A stretch of 64,000 nucleotides of DNA from Candidatus Nanohaloarchaea archaeon (GTDB lineage Archaea; Nanohalarchaeota; Nanosalinia; Nanosalinales; Nanosalinaceae). Positions 17,684-52,987 of the stretch are shown one piece after another. The DNA is taken from NCBI GenBank assembly GCA_013343275.1, contig CP046106.1:192001-256000 (forward strand). The letters run 5' to 3'. The notes under the pieces were generated by a model. That model searched no databases and had not been told where the DNA came from. It worked only from the letters and a program-made list of their open reading frames with translations. Each line of letters starts with the position of its first letter. Within the stretch, counting starts at the first letter, position 1. The position numbers were made by a program, and so were the translations under genes.

Positions 17684-18679
17684 ATGGTTGACAGTTTTTC
17701 AGGAAGTTTTGAGGAGATAGCAGGTTTTCAACCTCTCTACAAAGGTTATAGAGAAGCCAGGAAAGGAAAGCGTTACAGTGGAGAAGTCCTAAGTTTCTCC
17801 AAGGATTTAGATAAGAATCTTCACGAACTCTCCAACAGCCTTTTCGCTGGTAGTTACAGGTCTAAGGGTTTCAAGAAGTTTAAGCTGTTTGATCCGAAGG
17901 AAAGAGAGATTTCTGCTCCTTATTTTCGTGATCGTATCGTCCACCGCTCTCTCCACCGCTCTCTGGAGCCTTTCTTTGACAGGAAATTTATTGAGGATTC
18001 TTTTGCGTGTAGAAAAGGTAAAGGCACTCACGCTGGTGTTGATAAAGCACAGGAGTTTATGCGAAAACAGGATGCGGATTACTTTCTGAAATGTGATGTT
18101 AAAGGATACTTTGACAGCGTTGACCACAGTATTTTGCTGGATATGCTGAAAAGGCAGATCAGGGACGAGAAAATAATCGAATTGATACAGGCTATCTTGT
18201 CAGTTTCAGGCAGTAAAGGTATTCCGATCGGCACTCTGTACAGCCAGTTGTTCGCCAACATCTATCTTAACAGGTTCGATAATTTTGTGAAACAAGGCCT
18301 TCAGGAGGATTACTATGTGCGGTACATGGATGATTTTGTGTTTTTCAGTGATTCAAAGCAGAGACTGCACGAACTTAGAGAGGCCTGTAAAGGATACTTG
18401 GCTGATGAGTTGGATCTTGAGATCCCTTACAGCAAAACTACTTTGGAACCGGTGAACAAAGGTTTGACTTTTCTCGGGTACAGGATTTTTCCTCAGCACA
18501 GAAAATTGAGGAAGAGGAACAAGAAGAAATTCAGGCAACGACTGGAAAACCAGAAAAGGGCCTTGGAAAAAGGTGAAATTGATTTCTCCGAGTTGAAGGA
18601 TTCGATTGATTCATGGAGAGGTCATGCCAACCATGCTGATACAGAAAATTTGAGGGAGGAGGTTATTGGTGTCCTGTAA
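17684..18679 (+). CDS. DGR reverse transcriptase
   Basis: PKEREI..P.FRDRIVH, KCDVKGYFDSVDH, GIPIGTLYSQLFANIYL, YVRYMDDF, FLGY; 331 aa with no maturase or endonuclease domain. Confidence 0.95.
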   Translation: MVDSFSGSFEEIAGFQPLYKGYREARKGKRYSGEVLSFSKDLDKNLHELSNSLFAGSYRSKGFKKFKLFDPKEREISAPYFRDRIVHRSLHRSLEPFFDRKFIEDSFACRKGKGTHAGVDKAQEFMRKQDADYFLKCDVKGYFDSVDHSILLDMLKRQIRDEKIIELIQAILSVSGSKGIPIGTLYSQLFANIYLNRFDNFVKQGLQEDYYVRYMDDFVFFSDSKQRLHELREACKGYLADELDLEIPYSKTTLEPVNKGLTFLGYRIFPQHRKLRKRNKKKFRQRLENQKRALEKGEIDFSELKDSIDSWRGHANHADTENLREEVIGVL

Positions 18680-18776
18680 TTAGGTGGTTGAAATGGTCGG
18701 TGAGATTTGAGATTTGAGGCCTCTGAGTTTCTCACCGGTATTAGGTTTAAAAAGTTCGTCGGTTTCTACCTTTTGT

Positions 18777-18956
18777 ATGACTGTCTACACATTTTCAGGA
18801 GAGATAAATCTCGGGCGAAGCACTCATGGCTTTGAGAGAGAAGTCGAGGCAGAGTCCGAATCGCACGCTGAAGAGAATCTTTACGCAGAACTCGGCAGCG
18901 AGCATTCTATTCCACGAGGAAAAATCAGTATCGAAGACGTTGAAGAAAAAGAGTGA
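18777..18956 (+). CDS. rplX: 50S ribosomal protein L18Ae/LX (eL20)
   Basis: F.REVEAESE.HA.E.LYAELGS.H; directly upstream of pfdA-ftsY. Confidence 0.85.
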   Translation: MTVYTFSGEINLGRSTHGFEREVEAESESHAEENLYAELGSEHSIPRGKISIEDVEEKE

Positions 18957-44800: not shown

Positions 44801-44892
44801 TGCTTATCGGCTGCGATGAGTCAAAATCAAAGACTGAAGGGAAGGAGCCTGTGTTCTTCAGCTTCTTCTGGCAGCTGGTGGGCTTCCAGTGA
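41890..44892 (+). CDS. Giant secreted Asp/Cys-rich protein with Ca-binding-like DxDGDG motifs
   Basis: Signal peptide MSIRKALAIA; DNDGDGLVDG..DPGC, CGDGI, DADGDG. Confidence 0.75.
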   Translation: MSIRKALAIALLLSVLAGTISAYQFTGGSEDTGTGPPERPPQPSACLDSSDNDGDGLVDGKDSDSDNDGTPNWQEVNADGPDPGCSKPYDYDDSEANMYDLDASWIFGTRFSAPTPQDSSVFYGSELITNGSSTTVHPDTVSTSNSIIEYYVEGSSDNWGGGDKKSVEISNSENRPQGTMTGTTTTGVEGSAELIDAPYNSSSDGQCGDGIENSDENNLDCPEDYGLPDDAGTTKSTSSETLSDRFNAKVSQWNVNNANGVSVGDPNNQANNGEYLTSKNNNDDLADNIEYRFSNSGQGLVAPEAEGQKTDDISGSFPYTSDLQSGTQANAGETTDQVVQDQQWTDVPDYYLKDADGDGAPDELWMVYPEKVGETKMGSVTDYDLTGDKNVETWEVTGSEGTCSGANCSTSGSVCSSVDQGTDTKYTLESETTTTVSDSGNEQYYADSSGSYQHSKENTNLNQVSVEVTHHPGYNTETVDDDGCGGYTTTGSCTSSQGCSSGSTPVASEVSDQDIATGQTSNTITYRYEDIELHTAKVFDLNPAENPSYSPAFPTNALFEGDTFKYGTEAYSRSNIKYNAFNGDAYFAYTVDKDSKTLGNDEALTSSSYHIQVDGTAFESVRDYEKTWDVDGPEGQSDGYIAVLHRKGYLGSGQVELQGKSNRLMATEITDGNSAVDIVQPSDALGEVGLAGGCNDPFTHCIAAVDVMFRNINNWRNPKDPSVQTGSEAYPTAVTYRHDIENTNRSLGVCKMYQELDPDAAIGSNYGSNTDSPTQSSDKRCAGDTATEFWVTMEGPEIDESAISTHHLEGTADRITDCLWYGVDVPEGTVRTSGTQEYSQYELGGYSPDGEVCLAIDSSGESFTQNGKTYEETLPSNDPGDDVPYDNYDYDDDGTVEEVGGEWYDLDNKRINQYLRNNGNILVTNGDPDNASQIAYYWRQNENPSHPDFNPKGLGSGDNIGVTLEDDCGPLLIGCDESKSKTEGKEPVFFSFFWQLVGFQ

Positions 44893-47810
44893 GAAAAGCA
44901 GTTCTTGTAGCTTCCCTACTGCTTTCCCTGTTCGTAGCTCCTGCTTCAGGTCAGATGTATATGGAGGACATGTCAGGAACGCAGAGCGACTGGAGTTGCT
45001 ATACTACAGGAAGATCGCTGGATAAATGTACTACAGATGCTACCGGAAGTTACTCCACTCCAGAACAGTCGGCAAAGGCCACGGGGAGATACGAGATCTG
45101 TGGTAAAGGAGGCATAACGAAATCTTTCAATTTCTCTCGGCAGCCAAAGTATCTGAGCTTTGACTACAGAATAAGTCTAGACAGCTGGGGCAAGGGAACT
45201 ATATACATCAACGACTCCTCCGGAGTCACAGAGCTTATTGACAAGAAAAGAACAGGTTCAACCTATGATTCTGGCTGGAGAAGCGAAACATTTGTAGTCA
45301 GCTCACAGGACAAAGACTTCTCTCTCACCGCAGGAAGTATAAGCAGCTCCAGCTTCTGCGACAGCAAGCCGGAAGATAGATCATGGAAAGTATGGGTAGA
45401 CGATATCAAGGTAACATCCAGCGCAGACAAACCAAATGAACCTTCCTTCCGACAGCCAGAGGATGGAGCAACGGCAACACGCACAACAGTAGAACTCTCA
45501 ACAAGGATAACAGATCCTAACGACGACACTATGAACGTAAGTTTCCACAGAGCCGATGGCACACTGATAGAGAACGAAACGGCTCCCAGTGGAGCAACAG
45601 TCTCAGTATACTGGGGAGGTCTAAGTGATGGAGGGAGTTACAGTTGGTACATCAAAGCCTGTGATGGAACCGGCCAGTGCAGAATTACCGATACCTGGAG
45701 TTTTACTGTAGATAAGGCTGCAGAGAAAACATATACTGGAGGAGGCCTGATGGATGAAGACTATACAAAGATCGGTGAGAACAGGAGCGTAGGAAACTAC
45801 TACTTTGAGGGCTATGTTAACAAGCTGGAGGAGGCTACCAACCAGCTGGAGGATGGAATGGATACAAGTTACTACAGTCCAAGCGATTACGGTATCTGGT
45901 CGGACTCCGATGGCTCTCAGGGGAGTGCAGATCAATGGGCCATCACAAAGTACCAGAACTGGTCGATATCGAACAGAGGGATTCCATATCCTCCAGGCCC
46001 AACAGTAATCTCTCCGCAGATAAGACAGGGGGGTCTTTACCATCCAAGCTACAGCAGCGAGGGAGGAACATATTATCACAAGACCTACGGCGGGCCATAT
46101 CGAAGCGTTCCTACTAATCTAGGCGCCTTCACCTCTCCAAGTGTTTCCAAGAAGGACAAGGTAATGGGCAACTCGTTCGCTGCTGTAGCTGCACAGAACT
46201 TTACAGGTGCTTTCGGGCCTGTTCGAGAAGGTGATGGAGTATGGGTAGATCCTGATGATATACGGTCAATGAATGAATTATTGGAGGGGCCTTGGCTACA
46301 GAAACTTGTATACAATACTGACCTTACCGGTCCTGACATGGGTCTCGGCTTCAATCTTGGAGATAACCGAGGAATAAGCTATCGTTCAGGATTTGGCTCT
46401 CCAAGATCCTACGTTATGTACGGTAATGTCTACTTTGAAGGAGAAGCGGATAAAGTTGATAATGACGGAGATGGAGTTGTAGACGAGGAATGGAACAGCA
46501 ATGGAACAGTCGGTGAATCCAAGCCTTATATAGAGGCCCCGATGTGTGGTGATGATCAATACGAATACCTGCTTGAAGAGCTAGGAGAGTCAAAGAGATC
46601 GGTAGCAGGAGATGGAAAGTATGCCTGTACTGATTCACAGAACGTCTGTATAGATATGAGTGCGGAAGGAAGTAAGGTATTCGGCCTAGGAGTTTACCGG
46701 CAGACAGATGAGCCTGATGAAGCCTTCGGGAGATCCAAGCTTGATAAGGAGGCCTGTGCAGTGATAGGCACCGATACAGTTGCTAAGTGGTATGATCAGG
46801 ACTTCAAACAGAGGCTGTGCCGCGACAACACTCTCTACGGTAATAGCGGCGTAAGATGGTTCTCGGAAAGTGAGATCGCACAGCACCCAGCAGCGTTCAA
46901 AGGAGGAATAGACGACGACTTCAACGAATTTATAGAGGAAAACAGGGCGCTGGAAGGAACAACCTCGCAAAACCTCCAGTCAGATCCTACAAGAACCTAC
47001 ACATCTTCCAGCAGCCTGGGCCAGTACAGTCCCGTACCGACAGGTAATGCGGATCAGAGAAACGGTGTCTCAAATACTACAATAGCAACACCTGGCTTCT
47101 GTGGTGGAGATGACTCATCAGAATACCTGGTAACGCAGGAAGGCGTAACGAGTCTCATTCAGACCAACAACTCCATCATAGGAGTTGCTTCACAGCCGGG
47201 CGCATGTATACTTGATGGAGCCAAGTATCCTGAAGTTTCCAGCGACAAAAGGGAGCTTTACAGTCCTGGAGCGCAGATAGAGTTCGATCTCGGAAGCGAT
47301 ACCAAGATGATATCATGTTACGGCGGAGCCTGGTACCAGAAATGGCCTGTAGTATTCAGAAAAGATACTGTAGATGTGCCTCTAGGAACCTCTCGACTAG
47401 CACAGTTCAAGGTAATCAACGTGGAGACAGAGGCAAAAACCTTCAATATCGAGCTTAAGGACGACAGCTCCAGTAACTGGAACAACGCATGGTCATACCT
47501 ATCCCAGGAAGATGCCACAAGATCCGATACAGTAACAGCGACTATAGGCGCTCAGTCATCCAGGACATACACAGTTAAACTCTACGGAGGGAACTCAAAC
47601 GTAGACAACGCACAGATCACGGTAAGAGCTGCCTCAGCAGATGGCACAATATCCGGTGACGACAGCATCCGAATTGATGTAACAAAGGCCCCTAACTCCA
47701 CGCAGACCGGAGCGACTTCCAGCAACGCAGTACCCGGAATAGGCCTACCACAGATAGTAGTGCTGCTTATGCTATCCTCAACAATGTTCCTCTACTGGAA
47801 CAAACCGTAA
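44889..47810 (+). CDS. Giant surface protein with a PGF-CTERM-like anchor
   Basis: Signal peptide; Ig/FN3-like segment; DNDGDGVVDE; C-terminal S/T linker, then VPGIG and a TM helix. Confidence 0.75.
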   Translation: MRKAVLVASLLLSLFVAPASGQMYMEDMSGTQSDWSCYTTGRSLDKCTTDATGSYSTPEQSAKATGRYEICGKGGITKSFNFSRQPKYLSFDYRISLDSWGKGTIYINDSSGVTELIDKKRTGSTYDSGWRSETFVVSSQDKDFSLTAGSISSSSFCDSKPEDRSWKVWVDDIKVTSSADKPNEPSFRQPEDGATATRTTVELSTRITDPNDDTMNVSFHRADGTLIENETAPSGATVSVYWGGLSDGGSYSWYIKACDGTGQCRITDTWSFTVDKAAEKTYTGGGLMDEDYTKIGENRSVGNYYFEGYVNKLEEATNQLEDGMDTSYYSPSDYGIWSDSDGSQGSADQWAITKYQNWSISNRGIPYPPGPTVISPQIRQGGLYHPSYSSEGGTYYHKTYGGPYRSVPTNLGAFTSPSVSKKDKVMGNSFAAVAAQNFTGAFGPVREGDGVWVDPDDIRSMNELLEGPWLQKLVYNTDLTGPDMGLGFNLGDNRGISYRSGFGSPRSYVMYGNVYFEGEADKVDNDGDGVVDEEWNSNGTVGESKPYIEAPMCGDDQYEYLLEELGESKRSVAGDGKYACTDSQNVCIDMSAEGSKVFGLGVYRQTDEPDEAFGRSKLDKEACAVIGTDTVAKWYDQDFKQRLCRDNTLYGNSGVRWFSESEIAQHPAAFKGGIDDDFNEFIEENRALEGTTSQNLQSDPTRTYTSSSSLGQYSPVPTGNADQRNGVSNTTIATPGFCGGDDSSEYLVTQEGVTSLIQTNNSIIGVASQPGACILDGAKYPEVSSDKRELYSPGAQIEFDLGSDTKMISCYGGAWYQKWPVVFRKDTVDVPLGTSRLAQFKVINVETEAKTFNIELKDDSSSNWNNAWSYLSQEDATRSDTVTATIGAQSSRTYTVKLYGGNSNVDNAQITVRAASADGTISGDDSIRIDVTKAPNSTQTGATSSNAVPGIGLPQIVVLLMLSSTMFLYWNKP

Positions 47811-47842
47811 ACTATTTCAAAATTCTCTTTCTCTTTTACTGT

Positions 47843-47896
47843 ATGAACGGTGGCTACGTTCCGCAGCTTCCTCAACAAAGCTGCATTGCAGGATAA
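47843..47896 (+). CDS. uORF1, putative leader peptide MNGGYVPQLPQQSCIAG
   Basis: Read by hand; shares GGYVP with uORF2 through synonymous codon differences. Confidence 0.6.
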   Translation: MNGGYVPQLPQQSCIAG

Positions 47897-47951
47897 ACAG
47901 TATTCTCAACATTTCCTTAGCCACTGCTCTACCCATTCTAACGTGATTTCT

Positions 47952-48017
47952 ATGACACAATCAACCAAAGGTGGATATGTTCCACACGACTGGTTACGCT
48001 CAGTCGACACGCAATAA
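47952..48017 (+). CDS. uORF2, putative leader peptide MTQSTKGGYVPHDWLRSVDTQ
   Basis: Read by hand; GGYVP motif; CGTGAT SD-like sequence upstream. Confidence 0.6.
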   Translation: MTQSTKGGYVPHDWLRSVDTQ

Positions 48018-48037
48018 TGCGTTCAGAAGAACGCATT
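48016..48037 (+). promoter_or_regulatory. Perfect 9-bp hairpin covering the uORF2 stop and uORF3 start
   Basis: AATGCGTTC-AGAA-GAACGCATT. Confidence 0.65.
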
Positions 48038-48097
48038 CAAACACAACTCAAAACCTTTCAACAGAAAAATTCTCAGGCCGGTCGCTATGAAACGTAG
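48017..48097 (+). CDS. uORF3, connector peptide MRSEERIQTQLKTFQQKNSQAGRYET
   Basis: Coupled to uORF2 by TAATG; overlaps the ProRS ATG out of frame. Confidence 0.45.
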   Translation: MRSEERIQTQLKTFQQKNSQAGRYET

Positions 48098-49313
48098 CGA
48101 ACTATTTGCCACAACCTCCAAGGAATCGGAGGCTGAGTTCGACTGCCGCAGTGCAGAACTTGCCGTAAAGGCCGGGCTGGTCCACAACTATGGTTCCGGA
48201 ACTTTCGGATTCACACACCTGGGCCGGAAAGTACTGGACAATATAGAAGAAGTAATCAGGGATGAGATGGACGAGATAGGCCAGGAAGTGACGATGAACA
48301 TCCTGCAGAACTCGGAGATGTGGGAGAAGTCCGGGAGGTGGAAGAACTTTGAGGGAGACGAGTTCTTCACACTGAAGAACCGTGACAACAGAGATTTCAC
48401 GATCGCGGCGACGCATGAAGAAGCCTCTGTCGAACTTGTCCGGAAGAAGATTCGATCCTACAGAGACCTGGACTTCATCATCTACCAGATAGGTCGAAAG
48501 TTCAGAGACGACAGAGCCAGGAAAGGCCTTCTGCGTGGGAAAGAGTTCTTCATGAAGGATGCCTACAGCTTCCACGCCGACAGAGAGCAACTTCAGGAAA
48601 CCTACCATGAAATGATTGAGGCCTACACCACGATCTTCGAGAAACTAGGCCTTGAATTTTCCAGAGTCTCCGCTGAAAACGGTTCAATGGGAGGCAGTCA
48701 GAGCCATGAGTTCATGGCTGAATCAGAGATCGGTAGCGACACATACCTCAAATGCGTGGATTCGGAGTGCAGATACGGCGCCAAAGATCTGGGTGAAGAG
48801 AAATGCCGTGAATGTGGCTCTGAACTTCAGGATGTCAGCGGCATCGAGATAGGCCATCTGTTCAAGCTTGGCAAAAGATACAGCTCCAAAATGGATCTGA
48901 CATTTACCGATGAAGATGGAGAGGAGAAAGATGTCATCATGGCCTCCTACGGAATCGGTGTATCAAGGCTGATCGCAGCAATAATCGAGCAGAACAACGA
49001 TGAAAACGGCATCACCTGGAACAGTAAGGTGTCTGCCTTTGACTGCTCGATCATCATTGCAAGACATGAAGATGCGGCAGTTGAAAAGGCGGAAGAGCTG
49101 CACGATAAACTTTCCGAAAGAGGCCTTGAAGTCCTGCTCTTCGATGAAGGATCTGTCGGTGAGAAGTTCGCTGAGTCCGATCTAATGGGGATCAAACGGA
49201 AGGTCATATTGGGGAATAACTACCTGGAGAACGATGTGATTGAGGTAGAGAAGAGGGATGGACGAACCTTCCAGGCCGACTTTGAGGAGATTAAGGAGGT
49301 GGTATCCTCCTGA
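48087..49313 (+). CDS. proS: Bacterial-type prolyl-tRNA synthetase paralog (no full INS editing domain), proline-free
   Basis: THEE, YQIGRKFRD, GLLRGKEFFMKDAYSFH, MGGSQSHEF, GIEIGHLFKLG, YGIGVSR, anticodon-binding domain. Confidence 0.88.
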   Translation: MKRSELFATTSKESEAEFDCRSAELAVKAGLVHNYGSGTFGFTHLGRKVLDNIEEVIRDEMDEIGQEVTMNILQNSEMWEKSGRWKNFEGDEFFTLKNRDNRDFTIAATHEEASVELVRKKIRSYRDLDFIIYQIGRKFRDDRARKGLLRGKEFFMKDAYSFHADREQLQETYHEMIEAYTTIFEKLGLEFSRVSAENGSMGGSQSHEFMAESEIGSDTYLKCVDSECRYGAKDLGEEKCRECGSELQDVSGIEIGHLFKLGKRYSSKMDLTFTDEDGEEKDVIMASYGIGVSRLIAAIIEQNNDENGITWNSKVSAFDCSIIIARHEDAAVEKAEELHDKLSERGLEVLLFDEGSVGEKFAESDLMGIKRKVILGNNYLENDVIEVEKRDGRTFQADFEEIKEVVSS

Positions 49314-49316
49314 AAT

Positions 49317-50051
49317 TTATTCAATTTCTATATGCCTGGTATGGTTACATTCCTCGCATTGGACCTCTATTTTACCGTACCTAGTTTTAGATCCGATCGT
49401 GGTCAGACCTGAGTATTTGAACTTGCTGTTGTGCCTGTCGTTTTTGAAGTACCACTCGTTTCCACAGGCCGGGCAGTTCATCTCGACTTCTGTCGCCCTT
49501 CTCTCCGTTCTTTCCTTGTGCCTTTTCTTTTCCTCTTTTTTCTTCTCCTTTCTTTTCTTTTCCTTGAACTCTTCGGTTTTGTTTATGGATTCGCCTTTAC
49601 TGAAGCTGGAGGGATACTTTTTCTGGGCTTTTTTACTGTGTTTTCTCCCGTTTCCATAGACTAGGAAACCTAAGAGTCCACTTGCTCCTGCTATAGGTAT
49701 CCAGAGTATCCACATCAGGATAGGGTGAAGGCCGCTTAACGCGAATCCTGAAAGTACAGGTCCTCCGATACCGATTCCGGCTGCCTGTTTCTTTCTTTTC
49801 TCGCCGTGTTCTCTTTTCTCCTTTCCAGGATCCGAACCGCATTCAGGACATTCATTCAGGTCTGCATCAATAATTTCGCCACATTCCTCACATGCTGCTT
49901 TCCTTACTGTCCCGCATGAACTGCATTTTCTATCTCCATCATCGAACCGTTCGCTGCATTCCGGGCAGAAAAGCCGTTTCTGACCGCAGAAAGAACAGAA
50001 CCATTCATCGTCTCCTATCTCTTCATCGCAGTTACTTGATCCATAACACAT
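49317..50051 (-). CDS. Multi-zinc-ribbon membrane protein
   Basis: Repeated CxxC motifs, two TM helices, Lys-rich coil, C-terminal CPAC/CEEC. Confidence 0.7.
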   Translation of the reverse strand: MCYGSSNCDEEIGDDEWFCSFCGQKRLFCPECSERFDDGDRKCSSCGTVRKAACEECGEIIDADLNECPECGSDPGKEKREHGEKRKKQAAGIGIGGPVLSGFALSGLHPILMWILWIPIAGASGLLGFLVYGNGRKHSKKAQKKYPSSFSKGESINKTEEFKEKKRKEKKKEEKKRHKERTERRATEVEMNCPACGNEWYFKNDRHNSKFKYSGLTTIGSKTRYGKIEVQCEECNHTRHIEIE

Positions 50052-50169
50052 ATTCAGGTTAATTTTTCCTCAGCCTTATGTAGTTTTTTCAATCTAGCTG
50101 GATTTTTCAGGGAAAAAGTAACTTCCAGGCAGGCAAGAAAATTAAGAATTACTCCTCAGAACTTATTGT

Positions 50170-51648
50170 ATGAGCCAGGAACTCGGTATCACGGTAAAGA
50201 AAGATCAGAACCCTTCAGAATGGTATACGCAGGTAGTCCAGAAAGCAGAGCTAGCGGATTACGCACCTGTCAAGGGCTGCATGATAATCAAGCCGTACGG
50301 CAACAAGCTATGGGAATCAATCAAGGAAGACTTCAACTCCAAGATCACAGATACCGGGGTAGAAAACGCATACTTCCCACTATTCATACCGGAGAGCTAC
50401 CTGGAAAAAGAAGAAGATATTGTAGAAGGGTTTGATCCTGAAGTCGCATGGGTAACACATGGAGGCGACAAAGAACTGGAGGAAAGACTTGCAGTAAGGC
50501 CTACATCTGAAAGCATAATCGCACCATACATGGCTGACGAAGTAAGAAGCCACAGAGACCTGCCTCTAAGACTCAATCAGTGGGCCAACGTTGTACGCTG
50601 GGAAGCCACAGACACAAGGCCTTTCCTGAGGACCAGAGAGTTCCTCTGGCAGGAAGGACACACAGCACATGCAACAGAGGAAAGTGCTGACGAAGAGACT
50701 ATGTTGAGGCTGGAGCAGTATCAGGAAGTAATCGAAGATCACCTTGCCATTCCTTCGATCCTGGGTTACAAGCCGGAGCATGATAAGTTCCCGGGCGCCA
50801 AATACACTACAACAATCGAAACCTTGATGCCGGATGGAAAAAGTATTCAGTCGGGAACATCTCACCAGCTGGGCCAGCACTTTGCCGAGGCCTTCGAGAT
50901 AGAGTTCGAGGATGAGGACTCGGATACTCAGACTGCGTGGACGACGTCCTGGGGCCTCTCAACAAGGACGATCGGTGCTTTGATCATGGCACACGGTGAC
51001 GATGATGGCCTTAGATTGCCTCCTCGTGTTGCACCGACACAAGTGGTCGTCGTACCTATCTATCAGGAGGACAATCAGGAAGAAGTAGTTGAATACGCAG
51101 AAAAAGTGACGGAAGAGCTCGAAGCTGAAGGCCTGAGAGTAGACCTCGATGACAGAGATCACAGAACTCCTGGCTACAAGTTCAACGAATGGGAGTTGAA
51201 AGGAGTACCTCTCAGAGTAGAGATAGGGCCTAACGAAGTAGAAGACGATGCAGTTACACCTGTTAGAAGAGACAGCGGCGAGAAAAACATGGGCCAGGAC
51301 AGAGAAGAGTTCGTGGAGGAAGCCGAAGAAGTACTGGAAAACATCCAGGAATCACTTTACAACGAGTTAGAAGAGTATCTGCATGAAAATATCAGAGAGG
51401 CCGACTCGAAGAACGAGATTCTGGCGACAATAGGCAAGAACCGTGGATACGTCAAGGCCCGATGGTGCGGAAAAGAGGAATGCGAGGCCGAAGTGAAGGA
51501 CGAAGTCTCTGCCGAGATCGTAGTGCTACCGTTCCGAGAGGACTCCAAGCCTGCTACTATCCAGGCCTCCGAAGAACACATCGACGGAGAATGCGCAGTC
51601 TGCGGTGAAGAAGCCGAGAGATGGGCCTACTTTGCGAAAAATTACTGA
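50170..51648 (+). CDS. proS: Archaeal/eukaryotic-type prolyl-tRNA synthetase
   Basis: RPTSE, QWANVVRWE, FLRTREFLWQEGHTAH, SWGLSTR, C-terminal AKNY. Confidence 0.95.
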   Translation: MSQELGITVKKDQNPSEWYTQVVQKAELADYAPVKGCMIIKPYGNKLWESIKEDFNSKITDTGVENAYFPLFIPESYLEKEEDIVEGFDPEVAWVTHGGDKELEERLAVRPTSESIIAPYMADEVRSHRDLPLRLNQWANVVRWEATDTRPFLRTREFLWQEGHTAHATEESADEETMLRLEQYQEVIEDHLAIPSILGYKPEHDKFPGAKYTTTIETLMPDGKSIQSGTSHQLGQHFAEAFEIEFEDEDSDTQTAWTTSWGLSTRTIGALIMAHGDDDGLRLPPRVAPTQVVVVPIYQEDNQEEVVEYAEKVTEELEAEGLRVDLDDRDHRTPGYKFNEWELKGVPLRVEIGPNEVEDDAVTPVRRDSGEKNMGQDREEFVEEAEEVLENIQESLYNELEEYLHENIREADSKNEILATIGKNRGYVKARWCGKEECEAEVKDEVSAEIVVLPFREDSKPATIQASEEHIDGECAVCGEEAERWAYFAKNY

Positions 51649-51715
51649 GGGAGTAATTTTTCTCTCTTTTCTCTTGCTTACGTTTTCTTAAGCTTCAGGC
51701 CCGACTAACTGCTTT

Positions 51716-52987
51716 ATGATCCTCAAAAACATTCGATACCTGGTAACTCAGAACGATGATCGGCAGATTATAGAGGATGTTGATCTGTTGATTCATGGTG
51801 ACAGGATTGCTGGTATAGGCCATCAGATACCTGCTGGGAACCACAGGATAATTGACTGCAGCAACAAGGTGGTGATGCCGGGCCTGATAAATGCTCATAC
51901 TCATGTTTCGATGACTCTTCTGCGTGGGATTTCTGATAACAAGGAGTTGCAGGACTGGCTTGAGGAAGATATATTTCCCGCCGAGGAGAAGCTGGAAGAG
52001 GAGGATGCCTACATAGGTGCTCTTCTGGGATGTATGGAGATGCTGACAACCGGTACAACTACATTCAACGATATGTATGATCATATGGATCAGGTCGCCG
52101 AGGCCGTAGATCAGACAGGTATCCGTGCTATGCTTGGAAGAGGCCTTCTGGATGTTGATGGTGAGAGAGACAGGAGAGTGGATGAAGCGATTGAACTGGT
52201 TGAGAGCTGCCGTGGCCATGGTAGGATCTCTACCTGTTTCGCCCCTCACGGAGTTTACACTGCTTCGGAACAGCTTCTACTAGAGGCCAAGGACTGTGCA
52301 GAGATCTTCAACACCTCATATCACATTCATGTCTCGGAAACCGAGAAAGAAGTAAATGACTCGATAGATGAAAACGAGAAACCGCCGCTGGAATACCTCA
52401 ACGAACTGGGACTTGTAAACAACGATTTGATAGCAGCACATGGAGTCTGGCTGACGGATAAGGAAAAGCAGATCATGGCAGAAAAAGGAGGAAATGTGAT
52501 CCACAACCCTGCAGCAAACCTGAAACTAGGTTCGGGGATCGCAGACATACCGGAAATAATGGAGAAGGAGATCAACGTAGCTCTCGGAACCGATGGCGTA
52601 GCATCCAACAACAACCTCAACCTGTTCGAAGAGGCAAAACTTGCATCAATACTTCACAAGAGGAACAACCCGGAAAAGATCAATGAACAGCAGATACTCG
52701 ATATGGCCACGATAAACGGTGCGAAAGCACTGGGGCTGGAAGATGAGATAGGATCTATAGAGCTCGGGAAGAAAGCCGACCTGATAACGATAGACCTTGA
52801 CTCGCCGGATATGACTCCTGTACACGGCAAGAAAGGCCTGATATCCAATATAGTGTACTCGTTCTCAGGGAAGGTTGACGATGTAGTAGTCGATGGCGAA
52901 CCCGTTGTTCAGGGTGGAGAGGTCGTTAAAGTAGGTAGAGAGAAAATTTTGAAGTACGCAGCAGATCTATCGGAAAAGTTCGAATAA
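51716..52987 (+). CDS. Amidohydrolase (MTA/SAH deaminase-like)
   Basis: PGLINAHTH, HIHVSET, AHGVW, LGTDG..SNN, GKKAD. Confidence 0.88.
   Translation: MILKNIRYLVTQNDDRQIIEDVDLLIHGDRIAGIGHQIPAGNHRIIDCSNKVVMPGLINAHTHVSMTLLRGISDNKELQDWLEEDIFPAEEKLEEEDAYIGALLGCMEMLTTGTTTFNDMYDHMDQVAEAVDQTGIRAMLGRGLLDVDGERDRRVDEAIELVESCRGHGRISTCFAPHGVYTASEQLLLEAKDCAEIFNTSYHIHVSETEKEVNDSIDENEKPPLEYLNELGLVNNDLIAAHGVWLTDKEKQIMAEKGGNVIHNPAANLKLGSGIADIPEIMEKEINVALGTDGVASNNNLNLFEEAKLASILHKRNNPEKINEQQILDMATINGAKALGLEDEIGSIELGKKADLITIDLDSPDMTPVHGKKGLISNIVYSFSGKVDDVVVDGEPVVQGGEVVKVGREKILKYAADLSEKFE

Follow-up and report, generated by a model that had tools for sequence, protein, structure and literature searches.

Cognate bias is the principle that an enzyme needed for recovery from the lack of an amino acid should not itself need that amino acid (Alves and Savageau 2005; Fasani and Savageau 2014, PMC4209129). 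The sections of the 2014 paper on which we draw trace the first hint of this bias to the alpha subunit of tryptophan synthase, which is free of Trp; aminoacyl-tRNA synthetases (aaRSs) are not treated in them, and the sole 'synthetase' they mention is tryptophan synthetase. We analyzed a 64,000-nt stretch of DNA from Candidatus Nanohaloarchaea archaeon (the window; positions 192,001 to 256,000 of the forward strand of contig CP046106.1, assembly GCA_013343275.1), which carries at 48087-49313 (+) the gene for a paralogue of bacterial-type prolyl-tRNA synthetase (ProRS), here called ProRS2. The protein has 408 aa, lacks the INS editing domain and contains not a single proline (Pro). It shares with cognate bias the logic of a recovery enzyme that is independent of its amino acid, but cognate bias, as set out in those sections, is a statistical under-use in biosynthetic pathways, whereas ProRS2 displays total and conserved elimination in an aaRS. 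The Pro-free ProRS2 is the known principle taken to its extreme. A first-pass annotation of the window knew of no complete elimination of the cognate residue in an aaRS; in agreement with this, our full-text search of the open-access literature found no report of a Pro-free ProRS or of aaRSs lacking their cognate amino acids. Our reading, to which we assign a probability of about 0.62, is that ProRS2 would serve as a backup ProRS, induced by proline limitation and translatable without Pro-tRNA(Pro).

Amino-acid operons and pheST of E. coli are controlled by leader-peptide attenuation, in the case of pheST through the Phe-rich pheM leader. Duplicated aaRSs that serve under stress or confer resistance are also on record, such as LysU, the cyanobacterial ThrRS T2, the albomycin-resistant SerRS2 and the mupirocin-resistant IleRS (PMC9437257). 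As proposed for ProRS2, these are second, differently regulated copies for particular conditions, but none is reported, in the sections of that source used here, to lack its cognate amino acid. The only ProRS duplicate listed in those sections is ProRSx of Streptomyces, which charges a tRNA(ProA) bearing an Ala anticodon. Both ProRSx and ProRS2 are bacterial ProRS paralogues kept beside a normal enzyme; ProRSx, however, has its dedicated tRNA with an Ala anticodon, whereas ARAGORN found none for ProRS2. The INS-less bacterial ProRS (R. palustris type, PDB 2i4l; NF008979) have the same core and anticodon-binding domain as ProRS2 and, like it, no cis-editing. They are the sole housekeeping ProRS and contain 7-25 Pro, while ProRS2 is a spare with a four-Cys mini-insertion and 0 Pro.

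To the NCBIfam model of bacterial-type ProRS (TIGR00409, proS_fam_II), ProRS2 matched with 404.5 bits, above the cut-off of 306.7; with two stricter full-length models it stayed below the cut-off (NF006625, 445.6 against 558; NF008979, 365.5 against 550). Pfam recognized the class II core (PF00587, 125.3 bits) and the HGTP anticodon-binding domain (PF03129, 41.9 bits) and did not find the YbaK-like INS editing domain (PF04073) on the protein. The nearest solved structure was ProRS of E. faecalis (2j3l, E 2e-87), which aligned in two stretches (ProRS2 residues 1-233 and 248-406 with residues 1-232 and 401-561 of the chain). As the match skips chain residues 233-400, the INS editing domain of about 170 residues is absent from ProRS2, and since INS-less members are known in the bacterial-type family, this leaves membership possible. 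A mini-insertion at 48753-48815 (+) takes the place of the INS domain. Its four Cys (C223, C228, C240 and C243) were invariant in alignments A1 and A3, fall at a gap relative to 2j3l and probably form a zinc ribbon. The stretches that we take to be motif 2 and motif 3, as well as the THEE loop, aligned to solved ProRS (2j3l, 5znj), and T109, E111, E112, R140, E153, F154, G289, G291 and R294 were invariant even in distant Pro-free lineages. With catalytic motifs intact, as the first-pass annotation had stated, and with the ProRS signature and the class II motifs kept, the protein appears to be a ProRS. Residue-by-residue alignments to solved ProRS also reproduced all six Pro replacements named there (MNILQN, AATHEE, LDFIIYQ, RARKG, WNSKVSA and GIK). 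An AlphaFold2 model of ProRS2 was of moderate confidence (pLDDT 71.6, pTM 0.72).

The core archaeal-type enzyme, ProRS1, is encoded at 50170-51648 (+), 857 bp downstream, and scored 577.7 bits against TIGR00408 (cut-off 437). It contains 24 Pro in 492 aa, exactly as had been counted before, and the distance also agrees with the earlier estimate of about 0.9 kb. Both ProRS of this 0.9-Mb genome are without a cis-editing domain, and three free-standing ORFs of the YbaK/ProX type (PF04073) are present in the genome (C1:323734-324081, 666798-667142 and 427736-428062).

ProRS2 might have left ordinary Pro-tRNA(Pro) synthesis, to serve another tRNA or substrate or to act as a regulator, and have lost its Pro as a by-product of remodelling. 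The scores below the two stricter cut-offs would fit this, as would the replacement of a conserved Pro near the active site (in the GPTHEE loop) and the NCBI label 'aminoacyl--tRNA ligase-related protein' that several members bear. We consider it improbable: TIGR00409 was matched above its cut-off, catalytic motifs and the anticodon-binding domain have been preserved, and the gene is evidently under purifying selection. Moreover, ARAGORN, run on the whole genome, placed the nearest tRNA genes about 45 kb from ProRS2 and detected tRNA(Pro) with the ordinary anticodons TGG and GGG, plus a doubtful, intron-containing CGG.

A recount of ProRS2 gave 0 Pro and 0 in-frame CCN codons; the remaining two frames of the same DNA contain 30 and 22. 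We compared this with a set of 918 non-overlapping ORFs of at least 100 aa from the 915,886-bp single-contig genome, in which Pro makes up 3.48% of residues (4.9% in ProRS1). At the frequency of the whole set, 14.2 Pro would be expected in ProRS2, and the probability of finding none is about 10^-6.28, which places the protein in the class of low cognate bias and upholds the earlier calculation that chance is an improbable cause. Had Pro-free proteins of about 400 aa been common in this proteome, the observation would carry little weight, but among the 918, no other ORF of more than 208 aa is Pro-free. The remaining very-low-Pro ORFs of at least 250 aa resemble, by eye, coiled-coil or low-complexity proteins. 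When the genome was scanned for ORFs lacking any one residue, ProRS2 was the second most extreme of 40 cases. The most extreme lies outside the window (C1:834436-835269, - strand): a 277-aa ORF without Pfam match that contains 0 Lys where 15.9 are expected.

Relatives of ProRS2 were collected with a word-indexed protein search, in which 120 were listed. The 64 closest (58-84% identity), which where named belong to Nanohaloarchaea, contain 0 Pro in 59 cases, 1 in four and 2 in one, the last being a partial sequence; normal Pro levels in close homologues, which would have overturned the proposal, were not what we found. The Pro count is 0 or 1 in seven shorter fragments of this type and 10-30 in the remaining 49 listed relatives. 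The latter include the haloarchaeal sister proteins (from Halodesulfurarchaeum, Halogeometricum and Halobacterium, among others; 42-53% identity) with 10-21 Pro. Two sequences retain one Pro at the (G/A)PTHEE position, and both branch at the base of the nanohaloarchaeal clade. Where relatives mostly have Pro, at 16 columns, this clade has replaced it throughout: ten columns share one replacement residue in 47 or more of the 64 sequences, and the other six vary. Overall, Pro occurs in 2 of 397 columns in the 64 nanohaloarchaeal sequences; for the 40 sister sequences the number is 43 of 397. Each of the remaining 19 residues occupies similar numbers of columns in both groups (for example, Trp 8 and 13, Cys 22 and 23). 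Three or more residue types were present at 255 of the 397 columns in the nanohaloarchaeal clade, and total exclusion of one residue at that many variable columns is not what remodelling for another function predicts. ProRS2 also diverges faster than the core enzyme: identities in five genomes (G026, G036, G044, G046 and G047) were 63-68% for ProRS2 and 82-87% for ProRS1, with 68% and 86% in G046. In these alignments ProRS2 varies freely, yet never into Pro.

Neither low GC content nor loss of the INS domain accounts for the missing Pro. A metagenome scan with the nanohaloarchaeal alignment (A3) returned 80 INS-less ProRS loci, of which one is nanohaloarchaeal (L039) and 79 served as composition controls. 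These 79 have 7-25 Pro, and only the nanohaloarchaeal locus has 0; even at 26-30% GC, INS-less ProRS still contain 14-15 Pro. From named genomes, 34 of 80 loci were taken: Candidatus Nanohalobium has 0 Pro, and the other 33, from Halobacteria, Woesearchaeota, bacteria of the candidate phyla radiation and Bdellovibrionales among others, have 8-23. Pro might also be avoided for a reason at the protein level, such as escape from a protease that is specific for Pro, independence of prolyl isomerase in folding or a compositional quirk of this lineage. A clade-wide absence would follow from such a cause too, with nothing specific in its favor, and we regard it as very improbable: the proteome has 3.48% Pro and the adjacent ProRS1 4.9%, and the haloarchaeal orthologues keep their 10-21 Pro in an equally salty cytoplasm.

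Pro-free ProRS also occurs elsewhere. An exhaustive search among representatives yielded 147 further cluster representatives, four of which have 0 Pro (P0125, P0149, P0173 and P0214; 37-44% identity), the next-lowest count being 7. For P0214 the search found no close relatives; the runner-up reached 52% identity over 60% of the query. Scanning of viral contigs revealed INS-less ProRS with 0 Pro on contigs of 482, 508 and 181 kb and with 3 Pro on one of 519 kb, and six INS-containing ProRS on other viral contigs with 19-27 Pro. In an IQ-TREE phylogeny of 82 rows, the Pro-free state requires six changes. The nanohaloarchaeal clade groups with P0125 (support 85), the phage sequences group on their own (support 94), P0149 is nested in a Bdellovibrionales clade (support 99), and P0173 and P0214 cluster with a 14-Pro protein. 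An approximately unbiased (AU) test on a reduced set of 34 rows (LG+G4) rejected a single clade of all 12 Pro-free or nearly Pro-free rows (delta lnL 187.8, p-AU 0.0003), with a p-value weakened by the choice of the tested group after a tree had been seen. According to these trees, the Pro-free state of ProRS arose several times. Clade-wide exclusion despite fast divergence, together with repeated independent origins, shows that the absence of Pro in ProRS2 is due to selection and not to chance, as the first-pass annotation had proposed.

The viral contigs offered a wider comparison, with huge-phage status taken from IMG/VR and CheckV labels. We scanned all 654 ORFs of one 508-kb phage record (G071; proteome Pro 2.93%) for missing residues without preselecting genes. 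The six top outliers were an IleRS, a ValRS-like protein, an AspRS, a ThrRS, a PheS-related protein and a TyrRS, and an AlaRS-like piece and the ProRS ranked eighth and ninth. The IleRS (742 aa; TIGR00392, 695.6 bits against a cut-off of 621.4) has 0 Ile where 60 are expected, the ValRS-like protein (509 aa; profile score below the cut-off) 0 Val where 30 are expected, and the AspRS (425 aa; NF003483, 493.2 against 353) 0 Asp where 29 are expected. Likewise, the ThrRS (375 aa; profile score above the cut-off) lacks 22.6 expected Thr, the PheS-related ligase (SrmL; 366 aa; NF051887, 434.3 against 300) 17.8 expected Phe, and the TyrRS (359 aa; 280.3 against 113.8) 17.4 expected Tyr. The AlaRS-like piece (240 aa) has 0 Ala with 10.9 expected and is only weakly assigned (67.6 bits, cut-off 457.05); the ProRS (368 aa) has 0 Pro with 10.8 expected, its profile having been scored on the close homologue L013 (381 against 306.7). 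Three HisRS-like ORFs with 0 His were found in three phage records, and a SerRS with 12 Ser is an exception. One GlyRS-like phage ORF has 1 Gly. The loci of cognate-lacking phage aaRSs are L199-L224 in G071 and, in addition, L024, L028-L030, L034 and L035, with records G070 and G072.

With the Ile-free IleRS as query, 120 proteins were listed (P0387-P0506), 104 of them of the short type and 16 of the long cellular type. Ile is absent from 65 of the 104 listed short-type proteins; 27 contain 1-3 Ile and 12 contain 4-18, against 34-74 in the 16 of cellular length. The family of IleRS-type proteins of about 740 aa is large, and many members lie on contigs of 440-710 kb. The phage aaRSs fit the logic proposed for ProRS2 and would be hard to explain by a structural reason specific to one residue. 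No such reason predicts that the missing residue is the enzyme's own substrate across eight phage aaRS families, which further lowers the standing of a protein-level cause, and remodelling for another function does not predict the same exclusion in unrelated phage aaRS families.

The spacer 5' of ProRS2 is 276 nt long and contains two short upstream ORFs (uORFs), predicted to be translated. uORF1 (17 codons, 47843-47896, +) has a G-x-V-P core with its Pro codon at 47861-47863; uORF2 (21 codons, 47952-48017, +) is preceded by a conserved, Shine-Dalgarno-like GTGAT and has its Pro codon at 47982-47984. These are the only Pro codons of the transcript. At 10 of 11 orthologous loci we found the two uORFs with one conserved Val-Pro pair each in a G-x-V-P core. 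Across orthologues, start and stop codons are kept, while the codons for Gly and Pro differ at third positions. Of seven genomic copies of the core DNA motif, two lie between genes (both are these uORFs) and five inside ORFs. uORF1 may be leaderless, as an AT-rich TATA-like box lies, by eye, about 20-30 nt upstream. No Rfam match at E <= 1 was found in 47000-52000.

RNAalifold predicted a helix, P1, of 8 pairs, 4 of them covarying, in which uORF1 codons 2-4 pair with a block about 65 nt downstream. Its 5' arm (about 47847-47857, +) corresponds to uORF1 codons 2-5, and its 3' arm (block B, 47917-47927, +) is, in most orthologues, also complementary to the region of the Shine-Dalgarno sequence and start of the main ORF. 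Pairing of the P1 arms (A:B) had a mean z of -2.16 (below -1.5 in 7 of 10 leaders), and pairing of block B with the main start region (B:F) had a mean z of -1.61 (below -1.5 in 5 of 10). A 5-bp hairpin enclosing the Val-Pro codons of uORF2 (47971-47985, +; RNAalifold) was predicted in 10 of 10 leaders, with changes that are G-U wobbles only. Since this hairpin fixes some third positions, peptide and RNA constraints overlap. Directly after the uORF2 stop, minimum free energy folds of two leaders (L001 and L006) gave a 7-bp hairpin (48018-48035, +), which by eye varies in sequence among orthologues and keeps its position.

Short uORFs with codons of the cognate amino acid are one hallmark of leader-peptide attenuators. 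As in those, the uORFs here carry codons for the amino acid of the downstream gene, and the putative target is, as with pheST, an aaRS gene; like an attenuator, the leader may also form mutually exclusive helices. Unlike known attenuators, the ProRS2 leader is archaeal, has two uORFs with a single Val-Pro each instead of a run of codons, and is without evident terminator, the alternative helix involving the ribosome-binding site. We also considered and rejected other mechanisms by eye. T-runs before the main start are mostly 3-4 nt long, speaking against an intrinsic terminator; programmed frameshifting is disfavored because the Val-Pro site has no slippery sequence and neither uORF is connected to the main ORF. 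One haloarchaeal subgroup has a stem of 5 bp whose 7-nt loop is similar to the anticodon loop of tRNA(Pro), as in a T-box-like element or a mimic of the anticodon arm, and other groups are without it.

The haloarchaeal homologues share this leader. Upstream of these genes, which encode proteins with normal Pro, a script found a uORF with the same G-x-V-P core at 7 of 15 loci, and one was seen by eye at L128; none was found at three Halodesulfurarchaeum loci. The gene of Halobacterium salinarum (L126) is among those with this uORF. The leader is therefore older than the purge of Pro.

A covariance model (R1) built on the uORF2 region and searched in 70 genomes of the phylum matched in 22 of them, ProRS2 loci included. 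In G052, the full leader precedes a 517-aa ProC-ProB fusion (L240 479-2032; P5C reductase and glutamate-5-kinase according to Pfam) with about 6 Pro by hand count, and in G038 a weak match lies just 5' of a P5C-reductase gene (C17, around 17855-18951). No further P5C-reductase gene was detected in the 70 genomes, and the leader model matched upstream of both. Biosynthetic genes are normally raised when their product runs short. The sharing of the leader with such genes for proline suggests that ProRS2, too, would be raised at proline shortage. Two genomes without ProRS2 have the leader directly 5' of the archaeal ProRS1: G039 the full two-uORF form (L236) and G043 a variant with Leu-Pro for Val-Pro (L237). 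A conserved leader with predicted structure, standing before every intact ProRS2 orthologue and shared with proline genes, is new. P5C reductase was not found in the genome studied here when that proline route was searched, which fits a dependence on outside proline.

Other genes follow the leader as well. In G062 it precedes a 79-aa acidic ORF without Pro (L238 1561-1800, - strand; C2), and in G067 (L005) a similar small acidic ORF lies between leader and ProRS2. These ORFs of about 75-79 aa have no Pfam match and no visible Pro, and their product may be a ProRS2 partner or a second target of the leader. Weak matches in G068 (L241), G069 (L243) and G056 (L242) keep S-T-K-G-G-x-V and have a Leu codon at the Pro site; downstream of the one in G068 are a 193-aa acidic ORF, a chorismate mutase and a piece of prephenate dehydratase.

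ProRS2 was present in 13 of the 70 genomes of the phylum (12 of 49 other genomes of the same family, and 0 of 20 in other families), whereas ProRS1 was found in 59; among high-quality genomes the numbers were 6 of 28 and 27 of 28. ProRS2 is therefore accessory beside a core enzyme. Second aaRS copies responsible for antibiotic resistance typically show such a patchy spread; copies of this kind are listed for IleRS and SerRS in the sections of PMC9437257 cited here. ProRS2 could accordingly be an inhibitor-resistant spare, insensitive to a compound or a host or viral factor that blocks ProRS1, and Pro-free in order to be made afterwards; the different structural types of the two enzymes agree with this, and the Pro-free logic would serve such a trigger equally well. 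Nevertheless, we think this unlikely, though deserving of attention. That the leader is shared with proline-biosynthesis genes suggests that the signal is the supply of proline. Next to the locus, where neighbours vary among genomes, we saw no inhibitor or toxin gene, and phage aaRSs lacking many different cognates are hard to square with one inhibitor each.

We therefore return to a backup induced by proline limitation. ProRS2 would derive from a bacterial-type lineage without editing domain that it has in common with Halobacteria; in Nanohaloarchaeota all Pro would have been purged from it and re-entry selected against since. As the coding region has no Pro codon, ProRS2 could be finished when Pro-tRNA(Pro) is absent, so that, after collapse of the Pro-tRNA(Pro) pool or of the main ProRS, a cell would rebuild charging and not be locked out. 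Ribosome pausing at the Pro codons of the leader would report the supply of Pro-tRNA(Pro) and switch the main ORF, a proposed mechanism that resembles leader-peptide attenuation. Synthesis independent of Pro-tRNA(Pro) gains indirect support from the confinement of the transcript's Pro codons to the leader, from the occurrence of this leader at proline-biosynthesis genes and at the main ProRS of other genomes, and from the huge-phage aaRSs without cognate residues.

Several observations weigh against this interpretation. When the bases under a ribosome at the leader Pro codons were masked, predicted accessibility of the main start went up in 3, down in 4 and remained unchanged in 3 of 10 leaders, and the modeled competition between A:B and B:F, naively read, would shut the main ORF when a ribosome is on uORF1, the reverse of what our proposal requires. 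The haloarchaeal genes combine the leader with normal Pro, so the leader alone does not demand a Pro-free enzyme. At ProRS1 in G039 and G043, the leader could be a remnant of a ProRS2 deletion, because ancestrally the ProRS2 gene stood just before that of ProRS1. Furthermore, ProRS2 is missing from 57 of 70 genomes, a complete one of the same genus included, so that any need for it must be conditional. The confidence of the AlphaFold2 model was low in segments 70-108 and 136-153, where several of the replaced Pro sites lie. Finally, the tRNA(Pro) genes found carry G1:C72 and A73. E. coli ProRS uses G72 of tRNA(Pro), and recognition by a bacterial-type ProRS is therefore not assured.

Upstream of ProRS2, at 44889-47810 (+), lies a gene for a 973-aa secreted or surface-type protein without Pfam match, which is syntenic in G053, G044, G046 and G054. 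Between the two ProRS genes, at 49317-50051 (-), is a gene for a double-zinc-ribbon membrane protein (PF12773 DZR, 42.4 bits) that is probably not part of the ProRS2 system. In G000, G044 and G046, ProRS2 is located between the large surface-protein gene and ProRS1, which in G046 follows directly. G053, a complete genome of the same genus, has ProRS1 directly after the surface-protein gene and therefore lacks a 2.3-kb stretch, present here, with ProRS2 and the double-zinc-ribbon gene. Other genomes have different neighbours. ProRS2 also occurs as fragments or split copies (G061:C3:571931-579353 and G055:C7:587657-588013; residues 1-96, 95-399 and 220-396), which suggests ongoing decay or duplication in some genomes.

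Every aaRS requires its own product in order to be made, which is the circularity of translation. The data suggest that evolution has repeatedly broken this circularity by means of a cognate-free aaRS. We see the chances as evenly balanced that such enzymes form a general, repeatedly evolved self-starting class, lacking many different residues in phages and Pro in the host-dependent nanohaloarchaea, and that the enzyme of the haloarchaeal and nanohaloarchaeal lineage is coupled to an undescribed archaeal leader-peptide sensor of Pro-tRNA(Pro), by which proline-biosynthesis genes and sometimes the main ProRS are controlled as well. If true, the missing residue would offer a simple signature by which genomes and viromes could be searched for 'restart' enzymes, and huge phages would have a reason to carry small aaRS genes. 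Such enzymes would be natural parts for cell-free or minimal-cell systems that boot translation from a gene set. They would also reveal how far a fold tolerates the loss of a residue, with an IleRS-type protein of 742 aa without Ile and a ProRS that has lost every one of the 16 Pro that relatives mostly keep. Leader-peptide control, rare in archaea, would gain an example that can be tested in the genetically tractable Halobacterium, where a homologue has the same upstream ORF.

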